Source: Candidatus Caldarchaeales archaeon (GTDB lineage Archaea > Thermoproteota > Nitrososphaeria_A > Caldarchaeales > Calditenuaceae). Taken from it: DNA of 15,992 bases. The position numbers were made by a program, and so were the translations under genes. Of the stretch, positions 348 through 15,992 are shown piece by piece. Below the pieces are notes generated by a model that was not told the origin of the DNA, searched no databases, and saw nothing but the letters and a program-made list of their open reading frames with translations. The stretch is taken from NCBI GenBank assembly GCA_032249095.1, contig JAVVGN010000045.1:1-15992 (forward strand), written 5' to 3'. How positions within the stretch are numbered: the stretch's first letter is position 1; each line of letters begins with the position of its first letter.

Positions 348-581
348 GTGATGACATCCTACGTCACCGTGTCGGCCAAAATCCCGCGGAGATTAAAGGA
401 GTTGCTGGACAGGTACAGGGTAAAGCCCGGGCCCGTCATAGTCAGCGCCCTTGAGAGGGAGGTAAGGAAACGCGCCTTTGAGGAGCTTGAGGAGAAGACC
501 CGTGACCTACGGGAGAGGCTCCAGCACATAAGCGACGAGGAGATAGCGCGGCTGATACGCGAAGATCGGGAGAGAAGATAG
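348..581 (+). CDS. vapB: VapB-type antitoxin, ribbon-helix-helix (CopG-like) N-terminus with a charged helical tail
   Basis: 77-aa ORF (ATG at 351 is the more likely start). The N-terminus VTVSAKIPRRLKELLDRY fits the RHH strand-helix pattern. The C-terminus is E/R-rich. The stop lies 4 nt before the PIN gene, the classic antitoxin-toxin order. Confidence 0.7.
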   Translation: MMTSYVTVSAKIPRRLKELLDRYRVKPGPVIVSALEREVRKRAFEELEEKTRDLRERLQHISDEEIARLIREDRERR

Positions 582-585
582 GGCC

Positions 586-975
586 ATGTTTCTGTTCGAC
601 GCAAGCGCCATTGCTAACCTAATCAAAAGAGGCATCTTCAGCCCGTTGGCGGATGGGATGACACTAGACCTTGCGGTCTACGAGGTGTTGAACGTTGTGT
701 GGAAGGAGAACAGGATTCTCAGCGTTCTGGACGAGAAGTCAGCCGCCAGGCTCGTGGAGAGCTTCTCGGAGGTCTTCGCCGTCGTACCTGTTGTGAGTGT
801 CAGGGGATCGGAGAAGCAGGTTTTCGAGCTGGCGGTCAAGGAGAACCTTACCGTTTACGATGCCGCATACCTCTACACAGCTATCAGGAACAGGCTTAAA
901 CTAGTCTCCGACGACGAGGAGCTTAGAAAAGTGGCTTCAAAGTTTGTTGAATCCTTGAGGAGCAGAGATTTGTAG
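586..975 (+). CDS. vapC: PIN-domain ribonuclease toxin VapC
   Basis: 129 aa. The N-terminal FLFDASA acidic motif, the internal LTVYDAAYLY and the C-terminal LVSDDEEL give the conserved acidic residues of PIN domains. The gene is immediately downstream of the small RHH gene. Confidence 0.8.
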   Translation: MFLFDASAIANLIKRGIFSPLADGMTLDLAVYEVLNVVWKENRILSVLDEKSAARLVESFSEVFAVVPVVSVRGSEKQVFELAVKENLTVYDAAYLYTAIRNRLKLVSDDEELRKVASKFVESLRSRDL

Positions 976-4290: not shown

Positions 4291-4905
4291 TTGGGTCGCG
4301 AGGGCTTGGGGGCGGGAGAGAGTGTTTATGAGGCGTCGGAGGATACTTGGTTGCTCGAGGTCTCGCTTCTGAAGCTCGATTGTAGCGGCCTCGCGATCGA
4401 TGTGGGATGTGGGGGCGGCGACATTGCACTCACTCTTCTCAAGCGGGGTGGCGAGGTGGTGGCGCTTGACATCTCGGAAGAGGCTGTGAGAGTTACGGCC
4501 AGAAGGTCCGCGCAGAACAGCTGGAGACTCCACGTCATGGTGTGCGACAGGCTAGCAGCCCTAAGGCCGACGGGCCGTATATCCGTCATAGCGTGTAACC
4601 CTCCGTATCTCCCATCGGAGGAGCCGGCCGACAGGGCGGTGGACGGCGGACCCTCAGGGGCAGAGTTCTCGCTCGAGCTGATCTCGCAGGCAAGGCCATT
4701 CCTAGATAGGGGGGCCCGCCTTGTCCTAATCACCTCCACCCTCGGCGGTGAAGACGCCATACTGGAGGCCTGTAAGAAGATAGGTCTCCGAACGGAGATG
4801 CTCGGCTCTAGGAGGCTCTTCTTCGAGGAGCTCCACTGCTACCTAGTCGTAGGGCGGGATACTGGGCCGGAGAGGTGGAGGCTTATAGCTCGGCGAGCCG
4901 CGTGA
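4291..4905 (+). CDS. SAM-dependent methyltransferase with an NPPY motif (HemK/PrmC/Mtq2-like protein glutamine-N5 methyltransferase family)
   Basis: VYEASEDTWLL near the N-terminus, the SAM motif I LAIDVGCGGGDIAL, an acidic residue after strand 2 (VVALDIS), and the catalytic IACNPPYLP. About 200 aa, as in archaeal Mtq2 homologues. TTG start. Confidence 0.75.
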   Translation: MGREGLGAGESVYEASEDTWLLEVSLLKLDCSGLAIDVGCGGGDIALTLLKRGGEVVALDISEEAVRVTARRSAQNSWRLHVMVCDRLAALRPTGRISVIACNPPYLPSEEPADRAVDGGPSGAEFSLELISQARPFLDRGARLVLITSTLGGEDAILEACKKIGLRTEMLGSRRLFFEELHCYLVVGRDTGPERWRLIARRAA

Positions 4906-6550
4906 TGACATCTCTATAGATGTCTTTGGAGGCCATGTCCTCTATCAGTAGAATGCCGTACTGGGAGGCTAGGAACTTCGCGTCTTCGCTAAGCTTCCGC
5001 ATTGATAGGAGGGCGACCCTCTCGAGTCTCAAGTCTGACTTGACGAATATGAGTCGTATTATGCTGTTGACGGACAGCCCCTCACCTAGGTCTTGGAGGA
5101 AAAAGACTGCGCGGTCAAGCTTACCCTCCCTCCCGAAGAGTAGGTCGATGCGGTGCGTCACCTTGGAGGCGCCCACGACCCTCGAGTTGACCCGCGCCTC
5201 GAACCCCCTTCTTCTCAGCTCCTCCGCGATTGTCCGCATGGGCTTGCTCCGCTCCTGTAAAGCGTTTATTACCTCGGGGTTTACTGTGTATCTGTAGAAG
5301 GTCCTGAACTCGAAGCTACTCATGTCGTAGTCTATGCCACATATTAGGCACCTGAAGGTGATGTTGGGGTCTAGGCTCACCTCGTTGCAGTCGAAGCACG
5401 TGAAGAAGGTTGAGTGGACCTTGAGGACCTCGGCCCCACCCTCCTCTAGGGGGCTCGCGGTTATCCTGACCTGGGAGCCACATCTCGGACAGATCGTTCT
5501 CTCACCCGCGACGAAGCTGGTCTCCGGGCCGAGGTATCCGCAGGCCTCGTGTTGCATGACCCTCTGCCTCCCAATATTTACCGAGCCGCACGCCTTGCAT
5601 CGCAGATTCATCGTGTGAAGCGCGCTCTGGCAGTGGGGGCAGACGATCTTCTTGAACTCTACCCCCGCGACCCGCACAACGTTCTTGTCCTGAAGCCTCC
5701 TGAGCAGCCGCATGACGATACCGGTCTCCACGCCGAGCCTCGACTCGATTGAGGGGAAAGACCCGCCCTCTGGGGAAGTGTTATTCGGGAGGGGGACGAT
5801 CTCGCTCAGCCCCTCATCAACAATAATGTCGAGAAGCATCTCCTCAAGCTCGTCTAGGCTGGGCGCTGGGGTGGCGCGTGCCGTGATATCTACGCCCTCC
5901 TCCTCACGTAATGCGCCGGTCTCCACGAGGGGCGGCCCAGGCACCTCCTCCTCAGGGGCCGCTGTCTCGGCAGGGCCGGACTCCGCTGTTTCGCCCGTAG
6001 ACTCCGCGCCGGCAACCTGTGGTGACGTGGCTGGGGCCTGGCTCGGCTGGGCGGTTGGCTGTGGAGCCTCCATGACGGTTCCGCCTGAGGGTGGGGGCGC
6101 GGTCGGAGTCGAGGGCTGCTGCATAGCGGCGGACTCCATCTGAGTCTGCGGCCTCGGGGCCCTTGCAGCGACTAGGTAGAGGATGGTCGGCTTGAGCCCG
6201 TACGCCACGCCAACCCCGGCCGTGATAGCTAGATAGGGGGCCAGGGGGAGAATAATCCCGGCGATGTCTGTCGCTGGAGGGGGTAGGATAATGAGCGCGA
6301 CGACCCAGCCGGCGGCCGAGCCTACGAGGAGTATGACCAGCTCGCGGGCGAGGCGCCACGATATAAGCCCGTTCAGGACTCCCAGCAGGAGCCCCGTCGA
6401 CAGGCTGGACAGGAGTCCCCGGACAGACGCCTCGACGGCGAGCGCCGCGTATATGATGGGTTGGAAGAACCCCCACCCCACAACCCAGAGGACAAACGAG
6501 ATGGCTAAGGCAAGCATCGTCCGGAGGATTAGGCCCGAGACTATGCTCAT
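4883..6550 (-). CDS. Polytopic membrane protein fused to a disordered P/A/T/Q-rich linker, a winged-helix-like segment, three zinc ribbons and a C-terminal alpha/beta (restriction-endonuclease-like?) domain; putative membrane-tethered regulator
   Basis: 555 aa. Residues 1-130 form 4-5 hydrophobic helices. Residues 131-225 are low complexity (APRPQTQ...PSTPTAPPPSGG...). Residues 262-300 read SFPSIESRLGVETGIVMRLLRRLQDKNVVRV. Cys pairs are C304xxC-x10-C318xxC, H334/C337...C354xxC, and C385xxC-x12-C401xxC. The tail is IAEELRRRGFEARV...THRIDLLF...AVFFLQD...LIFVKSD. Confidence 0.75.
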   Translation of the reverse strand: MSIVSGLILRTMLALAISFVLWVVGWGFFQPIIYAALAVEASVRGLLSSLSTGLLLGVLNGLISWRLARELVILLVGSAAGWVVALIILPPPATDIAGIILPLAPYLAITAGVGVAYGLKPTILYLVAARAPRPQTQMESAAMQQPSTPTAPPPSGGTVMEAPQPTAQPSQAPATSPQVAGAESTGETAESGPAETAAPEEEVPGPPLVETGALREEEGVDITARATPAPSLDELEEMLLDIIVDEGLSEIVPLPNNTSPEGGSFPSIESRLGVETGIVMRLLRRLQDKNVVRVAGVEFKKIVCPHCQSALHTMNLRCKACGSVNIGRQRVMQHEACGYLGPETSFVAGERTICPRCGSQVRITASPLEEGGAEVLKVHSTFFTCFDCNEVSLDPNITFRCLICGIDYDMSSFEFRTFYRYTVNPEVINALQERSKPMRTIAEELRRRGFEARVNSRVVGASKVTHRIDLLFGREGKLDRAVFFLQDLGEGLSVNSIIRLIFVKSDLRLERVALLSMRKLSEDAKFLASQYGILLIEDMASKDIYRDVITRLAEL

Positions 6551-6639
6551 GGTGCTAACGACACCGCTGACCGAGAATTACCAGTTCATGGTATATGAAT
6601 CTTTTGGGCGATGTTAAACAAGCGGTCTCCAGGGCGTGC

Positions 6640-7986
6640 TCACCCCCCACACTCTAGGGCCTGCATCTCGGTCGTCTGTATGGTCTCGATGGAGACGACG
6701 GGGACCACCACTGTGATGATCGTGATGGTTGAGGTCGTCACGTTGAGCGATCTGACGAGGGTTTCCCTCCTGAGGAGGCATACGTCTATGTAGCCCGTCG
6801 TTGTGAGGGAGGTCCTGGGGTCTGAGGTGTCTACTGTGAAGCTGCCGGGCACCTCGATGCTTCCCTCGGGGACGTGGAGCACGTACCTGTAATTCGTGGG
6901 CGGGCTGTAGGGTACCTCGCAGATGAAGACGGCTGATGCGCTATCACCCGGGTTAAGCCTCGATATGCGGACCTCTAGTGGGCTACTGCAAGTGAATCCC
7001 ACCGGATCAAGCCTCACGGTTGCGTTCAGCGTGGGGCCGGGCACGGCAGAGTCGTAGGCCAGTACGAAGGAGATGTTGACGAGGGCGGTGGGGGTGTTTG
7101 TCGTGTTGAAGATTATCAGCCTCGGCACCGGGTTAGTGATCCTCAGTATTAGGGGCCAAGAGTGCTGGGTGACGTTGAAGCGGAGCAGGACGTGGCTGTC
7201 TACCACGACGCTTCTTGCGTAGAGGGGAATGATTGCTGCCCAGCTCCCGTCGTTCCTCATCACCTCTGCCATGACGTTGTACCTCCCGGGAGCGACGTTG
7301 AAGACGAAGACCTCTTCCCTCCCGATCCTACCCGTGCTGGACCCTAGATCTCGAACCTCGACGTACCTCTTGACCCAGAGCTCGGCCCTGCAGAAGTCTA
7401 GGCTGCTCTCGGATGATGATGGGAGAACGCATCCGTCGCCCTCCGTAGCCACCCTGACGCGGTAGACGCTGGAGACGCTTAGGTTGGTCAGCGAGATCAT
7501 GAGGAGGTAGGGCAGCTTCTTTGGGCCTATCTCGTAGGGCGAGACAAAGGAGTTGCCCCTCGCGGTGGCGAGCCGCACCCTGATCAGCTCGTTCGGCTGG
7601 AGCTGATAGTTGAGCCTCACGACGCTCCTCTCACCCGGCGCGAGGATTATGGGTTGTTCCGAGGCCCTGAGGACTCCGTTGATCGTACTCTCGATATAGA
7701 TGGCTTGGACCGTGGTTTCTATCGGCGAGCTGTTCGTGATGTTGAGGACGGGCTGGTATTGGCCCGGCGAGTCGGCGGCGCTGCTCAGGGTGAGGGACAT
7801 GTCGAGCTTCTCCCTAAGCTTCTCAGCCTCAAAGATGAGGCGCCTGTTGACAGAGTCCATATACATTGTTTGGAGCTGCTGCATGTAGATCCACATAGGT
7901 ATCACTATCGTGAAAAAGACGAGTAGGCCGATGACTGTTCCCAGGACCGCGGAGACGCCTGCCCCCTTCCTACGAGTTCTCGCCAT
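6640..7986 (-). CDS. Large type IV pilin-like (class III signal peptide) surface protein, family B
   Basis: The N-terminus MARTRRKG/AGVSAVLGTVIGLLVFFTIVIPMWIYM has a basic leader, Gly, then a hydrophobic helix of about 22 aa. It is a clear paralogue of the 396-aa protein (AGVS...FFT..VP..YM; NxSP..I; ATARGNSFVS versus VTERGRLFAS). It has many N-x-S/T sequons. ATG start with gggggtga 9 nt upstream. Confidence 0.75.
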   Translation of the reverse strand: MARTRRKGAGVSAVLGTVIGLLVFFTIVIPMWIYMQQLQTMYMDSVNRRLIFEAEKLREKLDMSLTLSSAADSPGQYQPVLNITNSSPIETTVQAIYIESTINGVLRASEQPIILAPGERSVVRLNYQLQPNELIRVRLATARGNSFVSPYEIGPKKLPYLLMISLTNLSVSSVYRVRVATEGDGCVLPSSSESSLDFCRAELWVKRYVEVRDLGSSTGRIGREEVFVFNVAPGRYNVMAEVMRNDGSWAAIIPLYARSVVVDSHVLLRFNVTQHSWPLILRITNPVPRLIIFNTTNTPTALVNISFVLAYDSAVPGPTLNATVRLDPVGFTCSSPLEVRISRLNPGDSASAVFICEVPYSPPTNYRYVLHVPEGSIEVPGSFTVDTSDPRTSLTTTGYIDVCLLRRETLVRSLNVTTSTITIITVVVPVVSIETIQTTEMQALECGG

Positions 7987-7988
7987 GG

Positions 7989-8552
7989 CTAGTTGTCACC
8001 CCCTATTTTCGTGGTGGTTGTGGTAGTGGTTACCGTGTATGTTTGCGTTGTAGTGGTTATGACTGTTGTGGTGACGGTGGTGAGTCTGTATGTCCCGAGA
8101 GTCGTTGTTGATGTCGTGCTCACAGTTGTGGGCGTTGTTAGCGTCGTCACGGTTGTTACAGTCGTCGTCTGAGTCGTAGTCGTAGGTCCATAGACCGTGG
8201 TGGATCTCGTGGTTGTCGTAGTCAACACACGATACACAGTGACGGTTGTAGTCGCGGTGACACTATTTGTCAGGGTTCGGACAGTGGTGGTAGTTGTGGT
8301 GGTTATTGTTCTTATGACTCTGGTCGAGAGGGTGCTTATGGTTCTGGTCGTAGTCGTCGTCGTGGTGGTTGATGCCGTGGCCTCCCCCGATAGCACAGTC
8401 GTCGTCTCCGTCGTCGTTACATAGGTGGTTGTTGTTGTCGTTACGGTGGTGTATGTAGTCGAGGTTGATGTCCGCGTCCTAGAGCCCTGTGCCAAGACCT
8501 CTCCAACGTGTGCCGAGAAGCCGATCAATACGATGAGCGCCAAGACGGTCAC
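7989..8552 (-). CDS. Secreted hyper-threonine-rich protein (about 56% Thr after the signal peptide)
   Basis: The minus-strand ORF sits 2 nt before and 20 nt after its neighbouring genes. The hydrophobic N-terminus is MTVLALIVLIGFSAHVGEVLA/QGS. Then follow 163 aa made almost only of T, V, S, R, Y and I. The composition matches the in-frame Thr-rich tail of the upstream 605-aa gene, which supports this strand and frame. The start may lie further upstream (see findings). Confidence 0.65.
   Translation of the reverse strand: MTVLALIVLIGFSAHVGEVLAQGSRTRTSTSTTYTTVTTTTTTYVTTTETTTVLSGEATASTTTTTTTTRTISTLSTRVIRTITTTTTTTVRTLTNSVTATTTVTVYRVLTTTTTRSTTVYGPTTTTQTTTVTTVTTLTTPTTVSTTSTTTLGTYRLTTVTTTVITTTTQTYTVTTTTTTTKIGGDN
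7992..8480 (-). repeat. Low-complexity ACN-codon (Thr) coding tract 1
   Basis: The plus strand is almost entirely G/T-rich triplets (ggt, tgt, cgt, agt, gta, gac). No exact repeat unit is discernible by eye. Confidence 0.8.
7996..8003 (-). promoter_or_regulatory. Shine-Dalgarno-like site for the 448-aa gene
   Basis: The minus strand reads gggggtga, followed 9 nt later by the ATG at 7986. Confidence 0.5.
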
Positions 8553-8572: not shown

Positions 8573-10390
8573 TCAGAGGGCCTTCACCTCCATCCTCCTC
8601 GCTAGGCGCCAGAGCAGCGGCGCCAGACCAGCCGAGGCGGCGACTGCCCCGCCCATAGCCATCAGGGCCTCGTAGCCGCTATTAACCGTTCCAGCCCCCA
8701 CCGGAAGGACCGGTACTGCCCCTCCGGCCCTGCTTATGGTAGTGGTGGTCGTGGTGGTTGTGGTCACGGTGGTCCGCGCGGTGGAGGTGCTTGTGGCAGT
8801 AGATGTCACCGTGTAGGTGGCGGTGTAGGAGGTGGTGGTTTGGGTTATGGTCGTGGTGGCGGTGGGGGAGTAGAGGGTGCTGGTCTGGGTTGTGCTTGAG
8901 GCTGTCCTGACGGTGGAGGTGGTGGTGTAGCTGGTCGAAGTTCGTGCTAGGGTGACCCACTGCGTTGATGTGTAGCTGGTGAACGTGGCCATCCTGGTTG
9001 TCACGGTCGTTGTGGTGGTAGTGCTTGATGTACTTGTCGAGATAGTGGTTCTGGTTGATGTTGTGGTTGTGGTAGACGTGTATACGGTCCGCGTAGTAGT
9101 TGTCGTTGTCGTGCTGGTCAGCGTTCTAGTGGTGCTCGGCACCGTTGTGGACGTGGTTTTCGTGGTCGTCGCCGTAGCTGTCGCCGTCACGGTTGTCGTA
9201 AGAGTAACCCAAACAACCTCGACATCCGTTACGTCTACATACTCTATGCTGACCTCGTAGAGGTTCAGTATCGAGGTTGGTGGGTTCAGGTGGTAGGTCC
9301 CCTGGGAGACTTGGTACATCACTCCCTGGGGATCAAAGTCCAAGAGGAGCCGCCCACCAGTGGTATAGCTGCTGACGCAGTCCCGTATCGCTAGCGTGAC
9401 TTGGACGGTGGCCTGGTCCGTCGAATAGGCAGAGACTAGGAAGCTGTTGGCAAGCCTATTCAGAAGATCTACATTGAGCTTAGCATAATCAGGGAAGATA
9501 ACGTCTCCCGCCACATCAAAGCGCCATATCTGGGGGAGGATGGTGTAGTCATCGGAGGTGATTGACACGGTCATGGGGTACCGGAGCGTCTGCCCCGATA
9601 GGGGGACGCGGATCTCCATCGGCGGCTCGCCCGACACGTGGATCGCTCCGCCCGCTAGGTTTCCACCCCCATCCAGAATCTTTACATCGATGTTTGTGTC
9701 TAGCACTCGGTCGCTCGCCATCAGCAACCTCAGCTTAACCTCATTGTTCACCACGAAAACTAGCTCCCCGTTCTCCAGCGCCGCCGATTCCACTGGATCA
9801 ACAAGCTCCACGAAGATCCAGCTGCTTGGCGGGGGGCAGGACTCGCTTAACCCCGCGCGGGGCGTAGCTGCCTCGAAGGACGAGACCTTGAAGAGCTCCG
9901 TCCTTAGGAGGGCCTCGATGGATCCCGGATCGCCAGGCCTTATGAGGGCTGTTGGTAGATAGTGCGCGGTAACCAGGATGGGGTCGCCCCTGCGGCATCC
10001 GGGGCATCTGAAGGAGACCTCCGCGACCTCTGCAACATTCAGCGTGACAAAGCGGGACGGGTCGAGGCCGCTATCGTAGGCGAGCGAGCCATTCCGATAA
10101 ACTATTATGCGGAAGATAGTGATCCTCTCGTATCCTACGTTTCTAAACCTTGCCACCCCGTATCCAGCCTCCTCAGGGATCCTCCAGTCGGGGAAGTACA
10201 CGTAGTCAGCCCCCAGCATCGACCTGAGGACGAGGCTATCCTTGTTGAGGCTCTGGACAGCCTCCTGCCTCCCGATAGACGAGTAGGAGGAGAGGAGTCC
10301 GAGCATGCCAAGCCCTATTGCGACGACCACAGAGAGCGTCATCGCTGTAGAGACAACGTCTGAGTCGCCCCTACGCGGCCCACGCCTCAA
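8573..10390 (-). CDS. Large type IV pilin-like (class III signal) protein, family A, with a C-terminal Thr-rich stalk and a C-terminal hydrophobic anchor
   Basis: The N-terminus is (TTG)RRGPRRG/DSDVVSTAMTLSVVVAIGLGMLGLL. The N-domain shares FRNVGYERITIFRIIVY...CPGCRRGDPILVTAHYLPTALIRPGDP with the 172- and 400-aa proteins. Residues 396-552 are about 56% Thr. The C-terminus is YEALMAMGGAVAASAGLAPLLWRLARRMEVKAL. The TTG start overlaps the upstream stop as TTGA, with gaggtga 7 nt upstream. Confidence 0.75.
   Translation of the reverse strand: MRRGPRRGDSDVVSTAMTLSVVVAIGLGMLGLLSSYSSIGRQEAVQSLNKDSLVLRSMLGADYVYFPDWRIPEEAGYGVARFRNVGYERITIFRIIVYRNGSLAYDSGLDPSRFVTLNVAEVAEVSFRCPGCRRGDPILVTAHYLPTALIRPGDPGSIEALLRTELFKVSSFEAATPRAGLSESCPPPSSWIFVELVDPVESAALENGELVFVVNNEVKLRLLMASDRVLDTNIDVKILDGGGNLAGGAIHVSGEPPMEIRVPLSGQTLRYPMTVSITSDDYTILPQIWRFDVAGDVIFPDYAKLNVDLLNRLANSFLVSAYSTDQATVQVTLAIRDCVSSYTTGGRLLLDFDPQGVMYQVSQGTYHLNPPTSILNLYEVSIEYVDVTDVEVVWVTLTTTVTATATATTTKTTSTTVPSTTRTLTSTTTTTTTRTVYTSTTTTTSTRTTISTSTSSTTTTTTVTTRMATFTSYTSTQWVTLARTSTSYTTTSTVRTASSTTQTSTLYSPTATTTITQTTTSYTATYTVTSTATSTSTARTTVTTTTTTTTTISRAGGAVPVLPVGAGTVNSGYEALMAMGGAVAASAGLAPLLWRLARRMEVKAL
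8584..8591 (-). promoter_or_regulatory. Strong Shine-Dalgarno-like site inside the 3-prime end of the 605-aa gene
   Basis: The minus strand reads ggaggtga. Exactly 7 nt downstream is a CTG (8576-8574) in the frame of the Thr-rich ORF, overlapping the TGA stop as CTGA. Confidence 0.4.
8606..8674 (-). other. C-terminal hydrophobic segment followed by a basic cluster (membrane anchor or sorting-signal-like)
   Basis: ALMAMGGAVAASAGLAPLLW is followed by RLARRMEVKAL. It is preceded by AGGAVPVLPVGAG immediately after the Thr-rich stalk. Confidence 0.5.
8735..9205 (-). repeat. Low-complexity ACN-codon (Thr/Ser) coding tract 2, the stalk of the 605-aa protein
   Basis: Residues 396-552 contain about 88 Thr of 157 by hand count. 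It shares the 14-mer gtggtggttgtggt (8751-8764) with tract 1 (8021-8034). Confidence 0.8.
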
Positions 10391-11589: not shown

Positions 11590-11624
11590 TTCTCGCCCAC
11601 ACGCTGGGCATGGGATATTGTTCC

Positions 11625-11637
11625 CCCTATATATGTG
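11625..11637 (-). promoter_or_regulatory. Internal promoter candidate (TATA box) for the 400-aa gene and downstream genes
   Basis: The minus strand reads cacatatataggg in the only sizeable gap of the cluster (166 nt, 11590-11755). It lies about 36-48 nt upstream of the TTG at 11589. A 6-bp perfect inverted repeat, aatcag-n5-ctgatt (11669-11685), lies about 40 nt further upstream. Confidence 0.4.
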
Positions 11638-11755
11638 CGATAGGTCGCGTAGGGTGCCGGATTTGTCAATCAGTCTGGCTGATTAGCCGGATGTGCAATG
11701 ACCGCTGTAGGCGTTTCGGCGGCCTGGAAAAGGTTGGCCATTGCCGGGGCGTTCG

Positions 11756-12946
11756 TTACCCCCGCCTCTGCGGCCTGACGGTTATAGATGTGGAGTCGCT
11801 GTCCGAGGGGTATGCCAGGCCGGATTCCTGGCCGGTCCCTGCGCTTGAGAGGGCGGGGATTGTGATGGTTATCGAGCCGGGGTTATTGCTCCTGAGGTCT
11901 GCGGCGTTTAGGTTGCAGCGGAGCGCTATTGTTGTTGAGCCCGGTGTCAAGGTATCTCCCAGTTGTATGCAGATGAGCGTTCCTGACTCGTAGTCTCCGG
12001 ATAGAGTGATTGAGTTCTGTATGGCCGCATGGTTTATTCCGACGCCCTCGCCGGCCTGTGCGGGGAGTGAGAGTGTTATGTCGAAGCTGAATGACTCGCC
12101 CTCGAGGACCCTTGAGGGCGCAATGATTTCTAGGTCGATGGTTTGCGGGGTTATCTCTGTCCTCGAGAGTATGAATACGACGTTCCAGTAGTCGGGTAGG
12201 GTTACCTCGGCGGGATTTGTGCTTGGCGCGATGAGTCTCCCCGGGCCTATTAGCCCTCCGTTCTCTAGGAGGTAGACATGGAATGTTCCTGCTGTCGCTC
12301 CGAAGGATAGAGATATGTTTTCGTTGCTCGCGGTGGCCTTATACGTGATGGATCGTGGCTGTATGTCGGCGTCCCCTTGTGGGGATATGAGGATTGTGTA
12401 CTGGTTTCCCCTCTTCATGTTGATTATGGAGACCGTGAGGGTGTAGGGGTAGAGGCCTGATGCGAGCCTGCCCCCGATGATGAGTACTGGTGTGGAGGCG
12501 AAGAGCCTTCCCCTCTCCGTGACCGCTATGAACTGGGCCCTCCCCGTAAAGTTTGTGAGGCATTGGTCTACGCGGACCGATGTGTTCCAGCCCGGCGAGA
12601 CGTCTATCGGCGTCTGGATGCATGGGTCGCCGCCTATCGGTGCCGCCTCCTCGACATCCATGGCCCAGATCCTCTGGACCCTGATCATTAGTGGTGATGT
12701 GTTTTTGAGCACCAGCCTTATCTGGTTGCTCGTGGATGGGAATGGTATTATTGTCCCCTCAATCGCGATCTCGAGGCTCTCCGTGGCTCGGTCTATGTCT
12801 CTTATCCTCCTGTAGTTGAGCTCGTTGGAGTAGAGGTTGTATAGGGTTGACATGTATAGGTAGAGTGGGACTAGCGTTGTGAAGAATATGGCTATCGCTA
12901 TCGCCACCCCGACCATCGTGGAGACTCCTGCCCTATCTCGCCTCAT
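11756..12946 (-). CDS. Large type IV pilin-like (class III signal) surface protein, family B
   Basis: The N-terminus is MRRDRA/GVSTMVGVAIAIAIFFTTLVPLYLYM. It is paralogous to the 448-aa protein. The ATG at 12946 overlaps the upstream gene by 14 nt. Confidence 0.75.
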   Translation of the reverse strand: MRRDRAGVSTMVGVAIAIAIFFTTLVPLYLYMSTLYNLYSNELNYRRIRDIDRATESLEIAIEGTIIPFPSTSNQIRLVLKNTSPLMIRVQRIWAMDVEEAAPIGGDPCIQTPIDVSPGWNTSVRVDQCLTNFTGRAQFIAVTERGRLFASTPVLIIGGRLASGLYPYTLTVSIINMKRGNQYTILISPQGDADIQPRSITYKATASNENISLSFGATAGTFHVYLLENGGLIGPGRLIAPSTNPAEVTLPDYWNVVFILSRTEITPQTIDLEIIAPSRVLEGESFSFDITLSLPAQAGEGVGINHAAIQNSITLSGDYESGTLICIQLGDTLTPGSTTIALRCNLNAADLRSNNPGSITITIPALSSAGTGQESGLAYPSDSDSTSITVRPQRRG

Positions 12947-13451
12947 ACCTAGCTACCTGGGCTGACATTACGTTTCTCGCTGGGTCTGCACTGCTGTATA
13001 GGTGCGCGGGCATGTACCAGAGCTCGACTATGTATGGCGGCTCTCCCGGATATCTCTCGCATCCCTGTATGGTTTCGAACCTGTCTGGGGAGGCGGCGAC
13101 TATGGTTGGCTGGATGTTGTACCTTATGCCTGGTGAGGGCCGTGATTTAGGGTAGATTGTGCAGCTGATGACTATTACGTCGTTCATCCCGGGGTTGGAG
13201 ACCCAGACGGCGTTGGTCTGGAGCGAGGCCGCCTCGACTACTAGGAGGATTCTGTGCTGGGAGATCATCCTGTCGTATTCTCTCGATATCTGTGTTCCCT
13301 GGCTCGAGACGTAGCCGAGGGAGAGCGCCCAGAGGGCCACGCCCAGTGTGACGACGCCCGCGAAGAGGAGGATCTCGCCTAGGAGTATTGTGTCGCCTCT
13401 TTTGTTTCGGGGCTGGCGCCTCCTACACATGGGGTTGATTGTCGCGTCCAT
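12933..13451 (-). CDS. Type IV pilin-like (class III signal) protein, family A, stand-alone N-module (pilin-sized)
   Basis: The N-terminus is MDATINPMCRRRQPRNKRG/DTILLGEILLFAGVVTLGVALWAL. It then has AVWVSNPGMNDVIVISCTIY...GCERYPGEPPYIVELWYMPAHLYSSADP, matching the N-domains of the 400- and 605-aa proteins. It is the first gene of the block. Confidence 0.75.
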   Translation of the reverse strand: MDATINPMCRRRQPRNKRGDTILLGEILLFAGVVTLGVALWALSLGYVSSQGTQISREYDRMISQHRILLVVEAASLQTNAVWVSNPGMNDVIVISCTIYPKSRPSPGIRYNIQPTIVAASPDRFETIQGCERYPGEPPYIVELWYMPAHLYSSADPARNVMSAQVARYEAR

Positions 13452-13477
13452 TTACTGATTGTCAGTTTTGGTGGGTC

Positions 13478-13490
13478 TGATATAAGTTTT
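13478..13490 (-). promoter_or_regulatory. TATA-box candidate for the pilin-like operon
   Basis: The minus strand reads aaaacttatatca, about 27-39 nt upstream of the ATG at 13451, in the 59-nt gap after the GT-C gene. Confidence 0.5.
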
Positions 13491-13510
13491 CTGAGGTGTT
13501 TGCCGGCTCT

Positions 13511-14938
13511 TTATAAATGGTTTTTAAATAGTGGTAGTTTTGTGATTAACAGTTTGTTTGGTCGGCCTTGTTTGGTCGAGAGTTGGGGCTGGGGGGCGTT
13601 TGTGTCTCTGCGGTAGAGGTATTCTGCGAGTATTACGATGGCTGCTGTTAGGGCCGCTGTGAATATTATCATTGCTGCACCCTCGAGGAGCCACTGGCCC
13701 TGAGAGTAGTTGTATATGAGTGTGAAGATGAAGTCCCAGTATGGGAAGCCTAGGTTCATTACGACTGCGAGGGGGGCGAGGGCCGCGGTGGCCACTATGG
13801 GGTGGAATGCGAGGCGTGTGGGGCGGGGTTCGTCGCTGTTGGGTCTAAAGGCTATCTGGGCCGCCAGCATGGCTAGAAAGGGGCCGACTGGGTAGAAGTA
13901 GTAGGGGTAGAACTGGCGTGCGAGGACGCCCTGCAGCATCCCGGACCAGTTGGCGGTCCAGTAGTTTCTCGGCAGCAGGAGCATGGTTAGGACTGAGGCG
14001 GAGGCGGCTACCGCGAGGTTTGCGGGTATGTGGAGCCTTCCCTGGAGCGCTCTGTAGAGGATTACCGCCAGCGTGACGAGGGGTGTTATGAAGGGTAGCG
14101 TGTTCCAGAATACTTGACCCATCCCGAGGTATGAAAGGATGTACCACGGAAGTGATTGGGGGACTCCGATGACGAAGGGGCCAACTATTGGTGATAATGG
14201 AATATTGTTAAAGGTCAGGTGACCCTCGACGGTTGTCTTGATTGTCTGTTGTATCCAAAGCCAAGGATTCAGAGATAATGAGATAATTGGCGGGAACATG
14301 TATAAGGCTAGGCGTTTAGGATTAAGCTGATGATGTAACAATAAAAAGAGTGCGAGGACTATGATGAGGATTAGAAACGTCAATTTGGTGAGAACCGCCA
14401 TAGATGCGAACACCGCAGCCAATATAAGATCTCTCCGCCTTTTACTTCTGTACAAACAATATACGCTTGTTACTGCAAATAACGTACCTATTGAGTCGAG
14501 GTATGCTGTAGAATATTGTATTAGGAAGGGGTCAAGTGCTGTGAGAGATGCCGCAACTAATGCTGCTTTATGAGAACGTTTTTTGACAAGCATGTATGTG
14601 GGGATTGTAGTCAGACTGGAGGCTAAAATGGGTGCTAAAAGTCCTGCCTGAGCGTGACCAATAATGGGACCTATTGTGCTGGCTGTCAATCCGGTAAGTA
14701 TCATGCCCAGCGGTGGAACGCCTGTGTTTATTCCTGCCAGCGCTGTGATGTTGAGTGCTTTGATATTTTCGATGTATTGTATTCCGAAAACTGTATAAGT
14801 GTCTACATCGAATATGATTAGAGATGAAGCTCCCCACCCCGGGTATATCCACGTACTGTAGCGTAGAGTGAATCCAAATGTGGTTACGAGCAACAGGGCA
14901 ATTAAGTATCTCTTCGAAAACCATCTGTGCCTACACAT
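13511..14938 (-). CDS. GT-C fold glycosyltransferase, PMT/ArnT-like (GT39/GT83-type, PMT_2-like) polytopic membrane protein
   Basis: 475 aa with about 11-13 hydrophobic helices. An acidic loop motif (IIFDVDTY) follows TM1. The block KAALVAASLTALDPFLIQYSTAYLDSIGTLFAVTSVYCLY...AAVFASMAVLTKLTFLI fits the conserved PMT_2/ArnT core pattern. ATG start with a TATA-like caaataaatac about 30 nt upstream. Confidence 0.7.
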   Translation of the reverse strand: MCRHRWFSKRYLIALLLVTTFGFTLRYSTWIYPGWGASSLIIFDVDTYTVFGIQYIENIKALNITALAGINTGVPPLGMILTGLTASTIGPIIGHAQAGLLAPILASSLTTIPTYMLVKKRSHKAALVAASLTALDPFLIQYSTAYLDSIGTLFAVTSVYCLYRSKRRRDLILAAVFASMAVLTKLTFLILIIVLALFLLLHHQLNPKRLALYMFPPIISLSLNPWLWIQQTIKTTVEGHLTFNNIPLSPIVGPFVIGVPQSLPWYILSYLGMGQVFWNTLPFITPLVTLAVILYRALQGRLHIPANLAVAASASVLTMLLLPRNYWTANWSGMLQGVLARQFYPYYFYPVGPFLAMLAAQIAFRPNSDEPRPTRLAFHPIVATAALAPLAVVMNLGFPYWDFIFTLIYNYSQGQWLLEGAAMIIFTAALTAAIVILAEYLYRRDTNAPQPQLSTKQGRPNKLLITKLPLFKNHL

Positions 14939-15034
14939 CTTTCAGTATCCAAACATATTTCCCCTGTATTTATTTGGTATAGATAATGAGTGTGTACAGC
15001 TTATAACAGTTATAATCTTCTTTGTGCATTCTTG
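14939..15034. promoter_or_regulatory. AT-rich divergent promoter region (GT-C gene leftward, DMT gene rightward)
   Basis: gtatttattt (14967-14976; minus strand aaataaatac) lies about 30 nt from the ATG at 14938. agttataatc (15008-15017) lies about 20-35 nt upstream of the ATGs at 15035 and 15047. Confidence 0.45.
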
Positions 15035-15397
15035 ATGCTGGTCTTGATGCCTTGGCTTCTCGGAATAGTCGTTGTGTTATTAGTAGGTCTGAATACGTTG
15101 TTCTGGGGGTTTGCCCTTAAAGAGGTGGGTGATCCGGAGTTTAATCTTGGATTTATGCTAGAGTTAGTCTTCAATAGATGGTTCATGTTGGCTATGGTAA
15201 GCGGTTTTGCTGTAGCTGTCTTGAGTTACTGGGTGTATAGTGCTTTAGGTGTAATGCTTGGGAGGTTCTTCCTCTCCATATCTATTGTGTCTGTTTTAAT
15301 CGTGGGTGTGTTTGTTCTCGGTGAAAAAATAAGCATAGAGCAATGGATAGGAGTGGTGCTAGTAACTATAGGGGTACTACTGATAGGTAGAGTATAG
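15035..15397 (+). CDS. Small four-TM DMT/EamA-type membrane protein (ArnE/ArnF-like candidate lipid-linked sugar flippase subunit)
   Basis: About 120 aa with four hydrophobic helices. The C-terminal VLGEKISIEQWIGVVLVTIGVLLI is the typical EamA/SMR-like terminal helix motif. The ORF track opens at GTG 14990, but the ATG at 15035 (or 15047) fits the promoter better. Confidence 0.6.
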   Translation: MLVLMPWLLGIVVVLLVGLNTLFWGFALKEVGDPEFNLGFMLELVFNRWFMLAMVSGFAVAVLSYWVYSALGVMLGRFFLSISIVSVLIVGVFVLGEKISIEQWIGVVLVTIGVLLIGRV

Positions 15398-15405
15398 ATT
15401 TCCTG

Positions 15406-15930
15406 CTACAGCTCCCAGACACAGGTTGTCCTAGGATTCTTACAAACTACTTCCTCAACTATCTTTGCCTTTCCTAAAACTTCTTCAATCATTTTTAGCG
15501 CTATTTCTCTCTTTTTATGCCCTTTGTCGTGAAACTGGACTATAATCGTTCTGACCCCAAGTGACGGCAGTAGCATAATCTCCTCTAGGACGGCGTGTTC
15601 GCATCCCTCACAGTTCAGTTTAACTACTTCCGGCCTGTACTCCTTTACTAGCTGTTGCAAACTATATGTTGGGACATCAAGCAGCAAATCACCTTTAGGG
15701 GCTCTCAAGCCATACGTATCGAGCCCAACCGATTGGGGAATCCACGGGACTGGTTCACCGACTGAGGCAAGTAGAGTAATCACGAGGAGATTTTTGCAGT
15801 TTTCGACAAGCACTTCATAGTGTTCCTTTACAGGCTCAACCGCGATAACCCTCTTGGCGCCCTTAAAAAGCCATAGTAGCACTGTGTCTCCTATGTATGC
15901 CCCTACATCAAGCACAGTCTTCCTGTCCAC
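15406..15930 (-). CDS. FkbM-family SAM-dependent methyltransferase
   Basis: It has LDVGAYIGDT (SAM glycine-rich motif), VIAVEPV, and VVKLNCEGCEHAVL, the counterpart of the FkbM iKiDiEGaE block. GTG start with cttaaatag 25 nt upstream. 174 aa is short for the family. Confidence 0.7.
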   Translation of the reverse strand: MDRKTVLDVGAYIGDTVLLWLFKGAKRVIAVEPVKEHYEVLVENCKNLLVITLLASVGEPVPWIPQSVGLDTYGLRAPKGDLLLDVPTYSLQQLVKEYRPEVVKLNCEGCEHAVLEEIMLLPSLGVRTIIVQFHDKGHKKREIALKMIEEVLGKAKIVEEVVCKNPRTTCVWEL

Positions 15931-15954
15931 ATTTACATCGAGCTCGTCTCCAAA

Positions 15955-15963
15955 CTATTTAAG
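15955..15963 (-). promoter_or_regulatory. TATA-box candidate for the FkbM-like gene
   Basis: The minus strand reads cttaaatag, ending 25 nt upstream of the GTG at 15930, consistent with a leaderless transcript. Confidence 0.45.
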
Positions 15964-15992
15964 CTTCTTCTGAGCATGGTGTATTATGGAGT

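Follow-up and report, generated by a model that had tools for sequence, protein, structure and literature searches.

A membrane-tethered TackOD1 protein with winged-helix-like, zinc-ribbon and degenerate Mrr-like parts in the type IV pilus loci of Caldarchaeales

What is the role of a 555-residue protein with a membrane-spanning N-terminus and a cysteine-rich soluble portion whose gene comes after five pilin-like genes? This question is raised by a 15,992-nucleotide contig of a Candidatus Caldarchaeales archaeon of the Calditenuaceae (assembly GCA_032249095.1, contig JAVVGN010000045.1), the whole of which is termed the window below. An earlier note, made from the sequence alone, had pointed to a resemblance of the soluble portion to the TackOD1 domain, and a match to the Pfam family PF18551 (86.4 bits against a cut-off of 32 bits) bears this out: the gene product belongs to the TackOD1/arCOG06883 family and is anchored in the membrane. 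This family was defined by Galperin et al. (2018), who called its function 'obscure' (PMC5847659), and Makarova et al. (2016; PMC4858521) had noted arCOG06883 proteins in the type IV pilus loci of Thaumarchaea, as restated in PMC5847659. Both the family and its association with pilus loci are hence prior knowledge (PMC5847659, PMC4858521), and the link to pili, which the earlier note had taken to be new, had already been made. These two papers were the only ones found in the full-text literature on TackOD1, PF18551 and arCOG06883, and a Calditenuis community paper contains nothing on the TackOD1 gene. With respect to the searchable literature, three points are new: an architecture with a membrane tether, which is confined to pilus loci of Aigarchaeota; the winged-helix and degenerate Mrr-like parts, which had gone unrecognised; and candidate operator motifs in the spacers.

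From the N-terminus to the C-terminus, the protein consists of four transmembrane helices, a linker of about 100 residues rich in proline, alanine, threonine and glutamate, the TackOD1 domain and an alpha/beta domain (Table 1), and all the parts listed in the earlier note were found in it; the TackOD1 profile match, the predicted topology and the pilin-like neighbours are likewise in keeping with that note. Full-length conservation is seen in at least 17 homologues from Nitrososphaerota/Aigarchaeota assemblies at 37-99% identity, and on account of this end-to-end conservation the combination of transmembrane and soluble portions is not a frameshift artefact. The JGI name 'ribosomal protein S27AE', attached to identical proteins, was rejected as stemming from zinc-ribbon similarity (NCBIfam S27ae, E=0.054). 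The JGI names 'transposase-like protein' or 'rubrerythrin' on one relative (in the set P0001-P0004, P0007) are spurious and also driven by the zinc ribbons.

The PF18551 match covers positions 7-188 of the 188-position model, which also matches 50 of 50 sampled relatives. Three zinc ribbons had been placed by the earlier note at nucleotides 5339-5641, and this was exact: the ligands form six pairs (eleven cysteines and one histidine), namely C304/C307 with C318/C321, H334/C337 with C354/C357, and C385/C388 with C401/C404. The cysteines are invariant in the family alignments, and the pattern of five CXXC and one HXXC is identical to the published description of TackOD1 (PMC5847659). The likeness to TackOD1/arCOG06883 thus lies in the full profile coverage, this ligand pattern and the setting in a type IV pilus locus. 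In the searchable literature, however, TackOD1 is described as double-zinc-ribbon-like only, with neither a winged-helix subdomain nor an attached Mrr-like domain. AlphaFold models built from a 24-sequence alignment give a mean predicted local distance difference test score of 88.4 for residues 233-555 and of 90.4 for residues 233-423; with the whole TackOD1 domain as query, a Foldseek search of the PDB retrieved nothing significant (best E 0.44).

In these models the N-terminal part of the TackOD1 domain is a helix-helix-helix-strand subdomain, with helices at residues 234-246, 266-272 and 276-288 and a wing strand (residues 292-303) that continues into the first zinc ribbon; the segment RLGVETGIVMRLLRRLQDKNVVRV falls within this confidently modelled region. 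The first ~60 TackOD1 residues superpose on the Zalpha structure 9j8g with a template-modelling (TM) score of 0.74 and a root-mean-square deviation (rmsd) of 1.6 Å, and the N-terminal winged helices of GntR and LexA also superpose, the TM score to the target being 0.71-0.74 across the three at a Foldseek E of about 1, as is expected for a piece of ~60 residues. Given this E value, the similarity is one of fold and does not amount to a significant match. Of the winged-helix segment proposed in the earlier note, the fold resemblance in the model therefore stands, whereas significant matches from Foldseek or helix-turn-helix (HTH) profiles were not obtained, and a winged-helix identity for residues 233-303 is structurally plausible. 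Basic residues conserved in the orthologous group comprise R281, R284, R285, K289, R292, K300 and K301, and the third helix together with the wing has a net charge of +5.

The C-terminal domain has no direct annotation in Pfam or NCBIfam. When the full soluble model is used as query, the top Foldseek match is 1Y88 (AF1548; E 1.5e-4, probability 1.0, rmsd 2.8 Å over 109 columns), behind which rank the nuclease domains of Can2, Card1 and Cdn1 and then VC1899 and NucS/EndoMS; all of them have PD-(D/E)xK folds. A 50-sequence family profile also reaches 1Y88 among the PDB sequences (E=9.4e-5), and hhalign connects the protein's own subfamily with the Mrr_cat-positive copies at a probability of 97.6% (E=4e-12). 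Pfam Mrr_cat (PF04471) itself matches 9 of the 50 family members (best E 4.6e-9) and further relatives with E values down to 3.3e-13. No match of Mrr_cat to the 555-residue protein was seen at E<=1, only the REC-fused P0077 is matched among ten tethered or long relatives, and a profile of the C-terminal domain of the tethered subfamily alone did not reach 1Y88 or anything else significant among the PDB sequences; the link to 1Y88 and Mrr consequently required the wider family profile, Foldseek and hhalign.

The domain shares with Mrr_cat/AF1548 the fold and a beta-hairpin motif, which reads G-x-S-x-x-x-H-x-x-D here as against G..G.D there. In the alignment the AF1548 motif 'IDVV-x9-ECK' corresponds to the family's 'fdll..vidva', and its first aspartate is kept as D469. 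The likeness ends at the ExK position, which by the AF1548 spacing is occupied by V482-F483-F484; this hydrophobic replacement, the lack of a direct Mrr_cat match and the lack of any match to defence models set the domain apart. Relatives have D/G-x-A/E/D/Y at this position, and a conserved lysine is absent throughout the TackOD1-linked clade. Residues G449, G460, S462 and D506 are invariant in the family and H466 and D469 nearly so, and the domain has a net charge of +4 in the orthologous group. As judged from the altered ExK position, it is a degenerate, probably non-catalytic Mrr-like domain, and probably serves for binding rather than as an enzyme. The earlier note had seen a nuclease-like fold devoid of (D/E)xK, and Foldseek, the family profile, hhalign and the motif alignment concur in confirming it.

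At the other end of the protein, a Kyte-Doolittle scan yields four hydrophobic segments, at about residues 5-27, 45-64, 67-88 and 95-117. Four of the four to five transmembrane helices counted previously are thereby upheld, whereas the fifth is not, residues 119-128 being weak and not hydrophobic in the orthologues. A five-helix topology that would leave the cysteine-rich part outside the cell was rejected in view of this weak, unconserved segment and of the cytoplasmic location of the module in relatives. The loop that joins helices 2 and 3 and the stretch directly after helix 4 are rich in lysine and arginine; since there are four helices with positive-inside loops, both termini are predicted to be cytoplasmic. 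Further, the cysteine-rich module is also found in stand-alone proteins that lack signal peptides and in REC fusions, which points to a cytoplasmic location, in accord with what the earlier note had supposed of its topology; a change of compartment by a zinc-thiolate module is unlikely. The transmembrane module matches nothing in Pfam and NCBIfam scans. Conserved within its helices are W22, G25, G53/G57, G77/G81 and W82, with small-xxx-small spacing. The linker proposed as disordered is present: of the 103 residues from about 130 to 232, 19 are proline, 18 alanine, 13 glutamate and 12 threonine, and the orthologues roughly keep its length while its sequence is unconserved.

An HMMER search with residues 233-555 (threshold E<=1e-3) recovered the unit made up of the winged helix, three zinc ribbons and Mrr-like domain in 1474 representative clusters. 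The best 150 of these are mostly proteins of ~310-340 residues that align to nearly the whole query, and a typical family member is on this account a soluble TackOD1 domain followed by the C-terminal domain. Other architectures include REC-TackOD1-Mrr_cat, sometimes with two Mrr_cat copies, HisKA-REC-TackOD1 and TackOD1-GGDEF; REC was found in the relatives P0055, P0070, P0124, P0113 and P0077. The published architectures are stand-alone TackOD1, REC-TackOD1 and REC-wHTH-TackOD1, as opposed to the four-helix anchor and ~100-residue linker seen here. The 555-residue protein has no Response_reg match and its N-terminus is taken up by the four helices, as the earlier note had proposed in speaking of a membrane module in place of a receiver. 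Long, N-terminally hydrophobic versions are few, and those with a named source all come from Aigarchaeota/Caldarchaeales (Caldarchaeum, Pelearchaeum, Calditenuaceae, Calditenuis). The TackOD1-GGDEF proteins P0175 (locus L008, 8001-9404) and P0176 are without the Mrr-like domain. The L008 gene overlaps an upstream 400-residue gene by 4 nucleotides, is followed by a family-2 glycosyltransferase gene with a 17-nucleotide overlap, and has a PEP-CTERM protein nearby, a neighbourhood that suggests control of exopolysaccharide via cyclic di-GMP with TackOD1 as the sensor.

Across 15 species-representative genome loci, a search that reached Caldarchaeales only, pilin-like and/or T2SSE/T2SSF genes lie within 10 kb of the TackOD1 gene in 14, and in the sole exception the contig ends 290 nucleotides past the gene; all the other loci examined also have such neighbours, as expected from the co-occurrence that the earlier note had asked about. 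Homologues at 37-58% identity have neighbours orthologous to the pilin-like genes of the window, with class III signal-like N-termini and usually divergent from the TackOD1 gene. Even distant tethered homologues (29-31% identity; L024, L025) adjoin T2SSE/T2SSF, and a stand-alone homologue (L007) closes a T2SSE-T2SSF-T2SSF operon. Additionally, where pilus loci are paralogous, each is accompanied by a separate TackOD1 paralogue. In L005, the most divergent locus, the synteny with the methyltransferase and CoxM/CoxS genes is lost and only the pilin genes remain linked, which argues for a specific association with pilins rather than for gene order that was simply inherited. The tethered form is thus a lineage-specific fixture of type IV pilus loci in Aigarchaeota/Caldarchaeales. 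Away from pilus loci, family members are found beside a histidine kinase (a stand-alone copy) or a glycosyltransferase (the GGDEF fusion).

Within the window itself, the 448-residue pilin-like gene nearest to the TackOD1 gene has orthologues beside TackOD1 genes elsewhere, and the orthologue of the 400-residue one is, in most Calditenuaceae-type loci, the gene with which TackOD1 is divergently paired. The TackOD1 gene of most other genomes is a unit of its own and is transcribed away from the pilin genes. The pilin block is also present on a near-identical contig of 511 kb (L001), where its upstream side additionally holds genes for a small Pilin_N-like pilin and for T2SSF. On the other side of the gene, a convergent HemK/MTQ2-like methyltransferase open reading frame (4291-4905, plus strand) overlaps its 3' end by 23 nucleotides (4883-4905). 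The order of methyltransferase, CoxM/CoxS-like and UbiA prenyltransferase genes beside the TackOD1 gene is kept in Calditenuaceae-type genomes and not in L005.

Table 1. Coordinates of the TackOD1 gene, the parts of its product and the associated pilin-like genes and intergenic elements in the window
Feature	Positions	Strand	Basis
TackOD1 gene, complete, 555 residues, membrane-tethered	4883..6550	-	stop codon 4883-4885; list of open reading frames
N-terminal membrane anchor, residues 1-118	6197..6550	-	hydropathy, loop charges, conservation in ortholog alignment
P/A/T/E/Q low-complexity linker, residues 119-232	5855..6196	-	composition, ortholog alignment
TackOD1 (Pfam PF18551), residues 233-423	5282..5854	-	E=2.4e-24, 86.4 bits
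Winged-helix-like subdomain, residues 233-303	5642..5854	-	model secondary structure, local superposition
Three zinc-ribbon ligand sets	5339..5641	-	Cys/His positions, family alignments
Degenerate Mrr/AF1548-like PD-(D/E)xK-fold domain, residues 424-555	4886..5281	-	Foldseek, family profile, hhalign
Spacer 5' of TackOD1 gene, 89 nucleotides	6551..6639	-	TATA-like CATATA 6592-6597, TTTAAC 6613-6618
Pilin-like gene, 448 residues, class III signal-peptide-like N-terminus RRKGAGVSAVLGTVIGLLVFF	6640..7986	-	weak UpsB N-terminal match, E=0.0015
Pilin-like gene, 605 residues, Thr-rich C-terminal half	8573..10390	-	N-terminus conserved among neighbours of TackOD1 homologues
Pilin-like gene, 400 residues	10387..11589	-	weak UpsA N-terminal match; synteny
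Palindrome AATCAG-N5-CTGATT, promoter region of the 400-residue pilin gene	11668..11684		same CAATCAG half-site
Pilin-like gene, 396 residues, class III signal-like N-terminus RAGVSTMVGVAIAIAIFF	11756..12946	-	orthologues in related loci
Pilin-like gene, 172 residues, N-terminus KRGDTILLGEILLFAGVV	12933..13451	-	N-terminus conserved in related loci
TGACAATCAG, copy of conserved pilus-locus intergenic motif, candidate operator	13455..13464	-	footprinting, motif search

The 89-nucleotide gap between the TackOD1 gene and the preceding pilin-like gene, correctly measured in the earlier note, probably holds the gene's own promoter, given that the gene is separate and divergent in most other genomes. 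The spacers 6551-6639, 11590-11755 and 13452-13510 of the pilin block have, respectively, CATATA, ATATATA and TTATAT at 30-47 nucleotides 5' of the next start codon, and the spacer 14939-14989 has AAATAAATA about 25 nucleotides upstream; this arrangement suggests a pilin block served by several separate promoters rather than one long operon. Phylogenetic footprinting of the divergent spacer between the TackOD1 and 400-residue pilin genes in seven Calditenuaceae-type loci (L003/L013, L004, L009-L012, L023) revealed conserved blocks in an otherwise diverged sequence, namely TTGATAATCA(G/C), an imperfect palindrome TTTACC-N5-G(G/C)TAAA, and TTGGCCA, with TATA-like boxes at each end of the spacer.

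The operator-like TTGATAATCAG of this divergent spacer recurs at other pilus-locus promoters (window 13455-13464, L017 9672, L023 6871). In the form TGAYAATCAS it has 11 copies in the 479 kb of collected loci, compared with about 3.7 expected by chance, and nearly all the copies lie in pilus-locus spacers, non-orthologous sites such as that of the window included. The window copy, TGACAATCAG, is placed 5-14 nucleotides 5' of the ATG of the 172-residue pilin gene, downstream of the TTATAT box. The two palindromes of the window are found only there and in the same-species contig L001. The only two copies of CAATCAG/CTGATTG in the window both lie in pilin-promoter spacers (11590-11755 and 13452-13510); this half-site, common to the two, was the only candidate for a shared operator among the three spacers of the window, and its sharing is no more than suggestive as operator evidence; the motifs obtained by footprinting in related genomes are firmer.

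What, then, might the tethered module do? The reading that is tentatively favoured, at a confidence short of even, is that the protein is a dedicated membrane-tethered, one-component-style regulator of its own pilus locus. The cytoplasmic module would bind nucleic acid, most likely DNA at pilin or pilus promoters, one target being the promoter shared divergently with the TackOD1 gene in most genomes; the Mrr-like domain would be a binding domain and not a nuclease. The membrane anchor would couple the activity of the module to the state of the membrane, possibly by contacting unassembled pilins or the PilC-like platform, whereby pilin expression would track pilus assembly. Several observations support this reading. 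The family serves as a response-regulator output (REC-TackOD1-Mrr, HisKA-REC-TackOD1), and one stand-alone copy sits next to a histidine kinase. The three cytoplasmic folds are typical of nucleic-acid binders, the charges of helix 3 with the wing (+5) and of the Mrr-like domain (+4) are positive in the orthologous group, and the gene is usually separate and divergent from the pilin operon, across a spacer with conserved operator-like blocks.

Other observations weigh against such a regulator. No HTH family of Pfam or NCBIfam matches at E<=1, and the winged-helix subdomain taken whole is acidic, with a net charge of -5. These points also tell against the ArnR-like membrane-bound transcription factor proposed in the earlier note, as does the lack of a match to MarR, TrmB or ArnR HTH profiles. 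Further, in 41 stand-alone relatives the mean charge is -0.1 for helix 3 with the wing and -2.6 for the Mrr-like domain, and as neither is basic, the family as a whole gives no obvious sign of DNA binding. In the GGDEF fusions TackOD1 is N-terminal to GGDEF, which fits a module for sensing, interaction or dimerisation. The conserved spacer blocks are candidate operators that may as well serve another factor as the TackOD1 protein, and the gene's own spacer, 6551-6639, lacks the conserved motifs. Finally, in some lineages the gene is tightly adjacent to machine genes, and in the Caldarchaeum loci L017, L018 and L020 a T2SSE gene lies directly downstream on the same strand, as it might for a machine subunit.

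These last points lead to the strongest alternative, in which the protein, instead of binding DNA, would belong to the pilus machine as an accessory subunit or would regulate its assembly. The anchor would dock at the PilC-like platform, and the module would bind the PilB-like ATPase or another protein and gate assembly, with the REC-fused relatives doing likewise under phosphorylation control, in the manner of CheY-like proteins at other type IV filament machines. Both this and the regulator fit the data, and the adaptor, although itself a somewhat doubtful proposition, is nearly as likely. It is favoured by the placement of the gene directly upstream of T2SSE in the three Caldarchaeum loci, immediately after T2SSF in L007 and next to T2SSF in L024, as well as by the dedicated TackOD1 paralogue of each paralogous pilus locus. 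The conserved G-xxx-G spacing and tryptophan of the transmembrane helices, the acidic or neutral average charge of the family, and the GGDEF fusions, which show that the core need not go with DNA binding, also fit it. Zinc ribbons and winged helices, moreover, often mediate protein contacts. However, the gene is mostly not co-transcribed with machine genes, being divergent from the pilin genes, and members of the family also occur beside a histidine kinase or an exopolysaccharide glycosyltransferase.

Alternatively, TackOD1 could be the input rather than the output of signalling, its cysteine-rich zinc sites sensing redox or metal state, by zinc release on oxidation, and switching an Mrr-like, GGDEF or REC partner; at the membrane, the tethered protein would then alert the pilus system to oxidative or metal stress. 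Zinc-thiolate redox switches are established in Hsp33 and RsrA, and the eleven invariant cysteines in three sites and the position of TackOD1 ahead of GGDEF, where sensors usually lie, fit such a role. Nevertheless, zinc ribbons are most often purely structural, and the gene neighbourhood offers no redox pointers. TackOD1 downstream of REC is, moreover, in the output position of response regulators (PMC5847659). A signal-input role is accordingly judged unlikely.

More improbable still is a hitherto unrecognised kind of DNA-handling device, tethered to the membrane at the pilus base in Aigarchaeota, in which the module of winged helix, zinc ribbons and Mrr-like domain would not regulate transcription and would instead form the cytoplasmic face of an archaeal competence-like pathway. 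DNA that enters or is exchanged through the pilus would in this case be received, held or processed by the tethered Mrr-like domain, possibly at a non-canonical active site formed by S462, H466, D469 and D506. In bacteria, and in Sulfolobus with its Ups/Ced system, DNA is taken up or exchanged by means of type IV filaments, and the PD-(D/E)xK fold, the tether within a type IV pilus locus and the conservation of G460, S462 and D506 (invariant) and H466 and D469 (nearly so) are in keeping with the idea. Against it stand the hydrophobic residues at ExK and the family-wide absence of the lysine, the soluble, REC-fused and GGDEF-fused relatives, which point to signalling, and the lack of DNA-translocation genes in the loci examined. 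A Mrr-type restriction or defence protein that lies next to pilin genes by chance, as the Mrr_cat matches of relatives (9 of 50, best E 4.6e-9; to 3.3e-13) might suggest, is effectively refuted by the absence of PADLOC matches to the protein and three relatives, the missing catalytic ExK, the persistence of the pilus-locus linkage across 29-99% identity and the fusion of relatives to signalling domains.

Returning to the favoured regulator, the closest parallels are analogues. Like ArnR/ArnR1 of Sulfolobus and the ToxR/CadC type, the protein would be a membrane-held module, here with putative DNA binding, that controls appendage or envelope genes with no phosphotransfer. The 555-residue protein, however, matches no related family in the Pfam and NCBIfam scans and lacks a HAMP-like or periplasmic sensor domain. 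Its order is also the reverse, the anchor coming first and the soluble module last, whereas ArnR and ArnR1 have an N-terminal HTH and C-terminal transmembrane helices. It is hence an analogue, and not a homologue, of ArnR/ArnR1 or ToxR/CadC-type regulators. In the PilS-PilR system of Pseudomonas, the transmembrane segments of PilS sense the levels of pilin in the membrane and control pilin expression. The resemblance would lie in a polytopic membrane segment that possibly senses the pilin pool and is coupled to pilin genes of the same locus, but here this would be done by a single polypeptide with no kinase, receiver or sigma-54 activator.

Several other features of the window were observed. 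Its end, 13511-15992, has a GC content of 0.42-0.51 compared with about 0.58 elsewhere. It encodes a 475-residue protein with multiple transmembrane segments (13511-14938, minus strand) that is 70% identical to the L001 copy, while every other shared gene is 98-100% identical. On the 5' side of this gene, L001 has the small Pilin_N-like pilin and T2SSF, whereas the window has an EamA-like 135-residue membrane protein (14990-15397, plus strand) and an FkbM-type methyltransferase (15406-15930, minus strand). This edge of the pilus locus has the look of a recombination breakpoint or of a strain-variable cassette. Most of the pilus loci examined in Caldarchaeales encode a polytopic membrane protein of ~460-475 residues with no Pfam or NCBIfam match, which in the window is the product of 13511-14938, and in L004 (412-3323) it adjoins a family-2 glycosyltransferase and a small EamA-like protein, a trio that recalls lipid-carrier glycosylation systems (ArnC, ArnE/F, ArnT-like). 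The polytopic protein may glycosylate the threonine-rich pilin-like proteins.

As regards threonine-rich sequences, the 605-residue pilin-like protein has long threonine tracts in its C-terminal half, and an adjacent 187-residue open reading frame (7989-8552, minus strand) has a hydrophobic N-terminus followed almost entirely by threonine, valine and serine. The latter is 98% conserved on L001, yet it is uncalled there, two short antisense open reading frames being called instead; at the equivalent position, L003 and L004 have a similar threonine-rich (antisense valine-rich) stretch. Elsewhere in the window, a 77-residue antitoxin-like open reading frame and a 129-residue PIN-domain protein (348-975, plus strand) look like a VapBC pair, and a 101-residue unannotated open reading frame (2302-2607) is called on L001 too.

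TackOD1 is among the few archaeal response-regulator output domains that span several phyla, and to our knowledge nothing is known experimentally of the regulation of type IV pili in Thaumarchaeota/Aigarchaeota. Against this background, the conserved functional unit exceeds the Pfam domain, being built of a winged helix, three zinc ribbons and an Mrr-like fold that is disabled; a whole archaeal order has this unit tethered to the membrane within pilus loci, and the pilus loci of Caldarchaeales carry conserved palindromic motifs in their spacers. An obscure domain is thereby turned into a testable hypothesis, namely that of a one-polypeptide link from the state of the pilus or membrane to pilin expression, with defined fragments and candidate DNA targets. 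Should the adaptor at the pilus machine prove to be the right reading instead, a new kind of accessory subunit of type IV filaments would have been found, and either outcome would aid the reading of the REC- and GGDEF-fused bacterial relatives.

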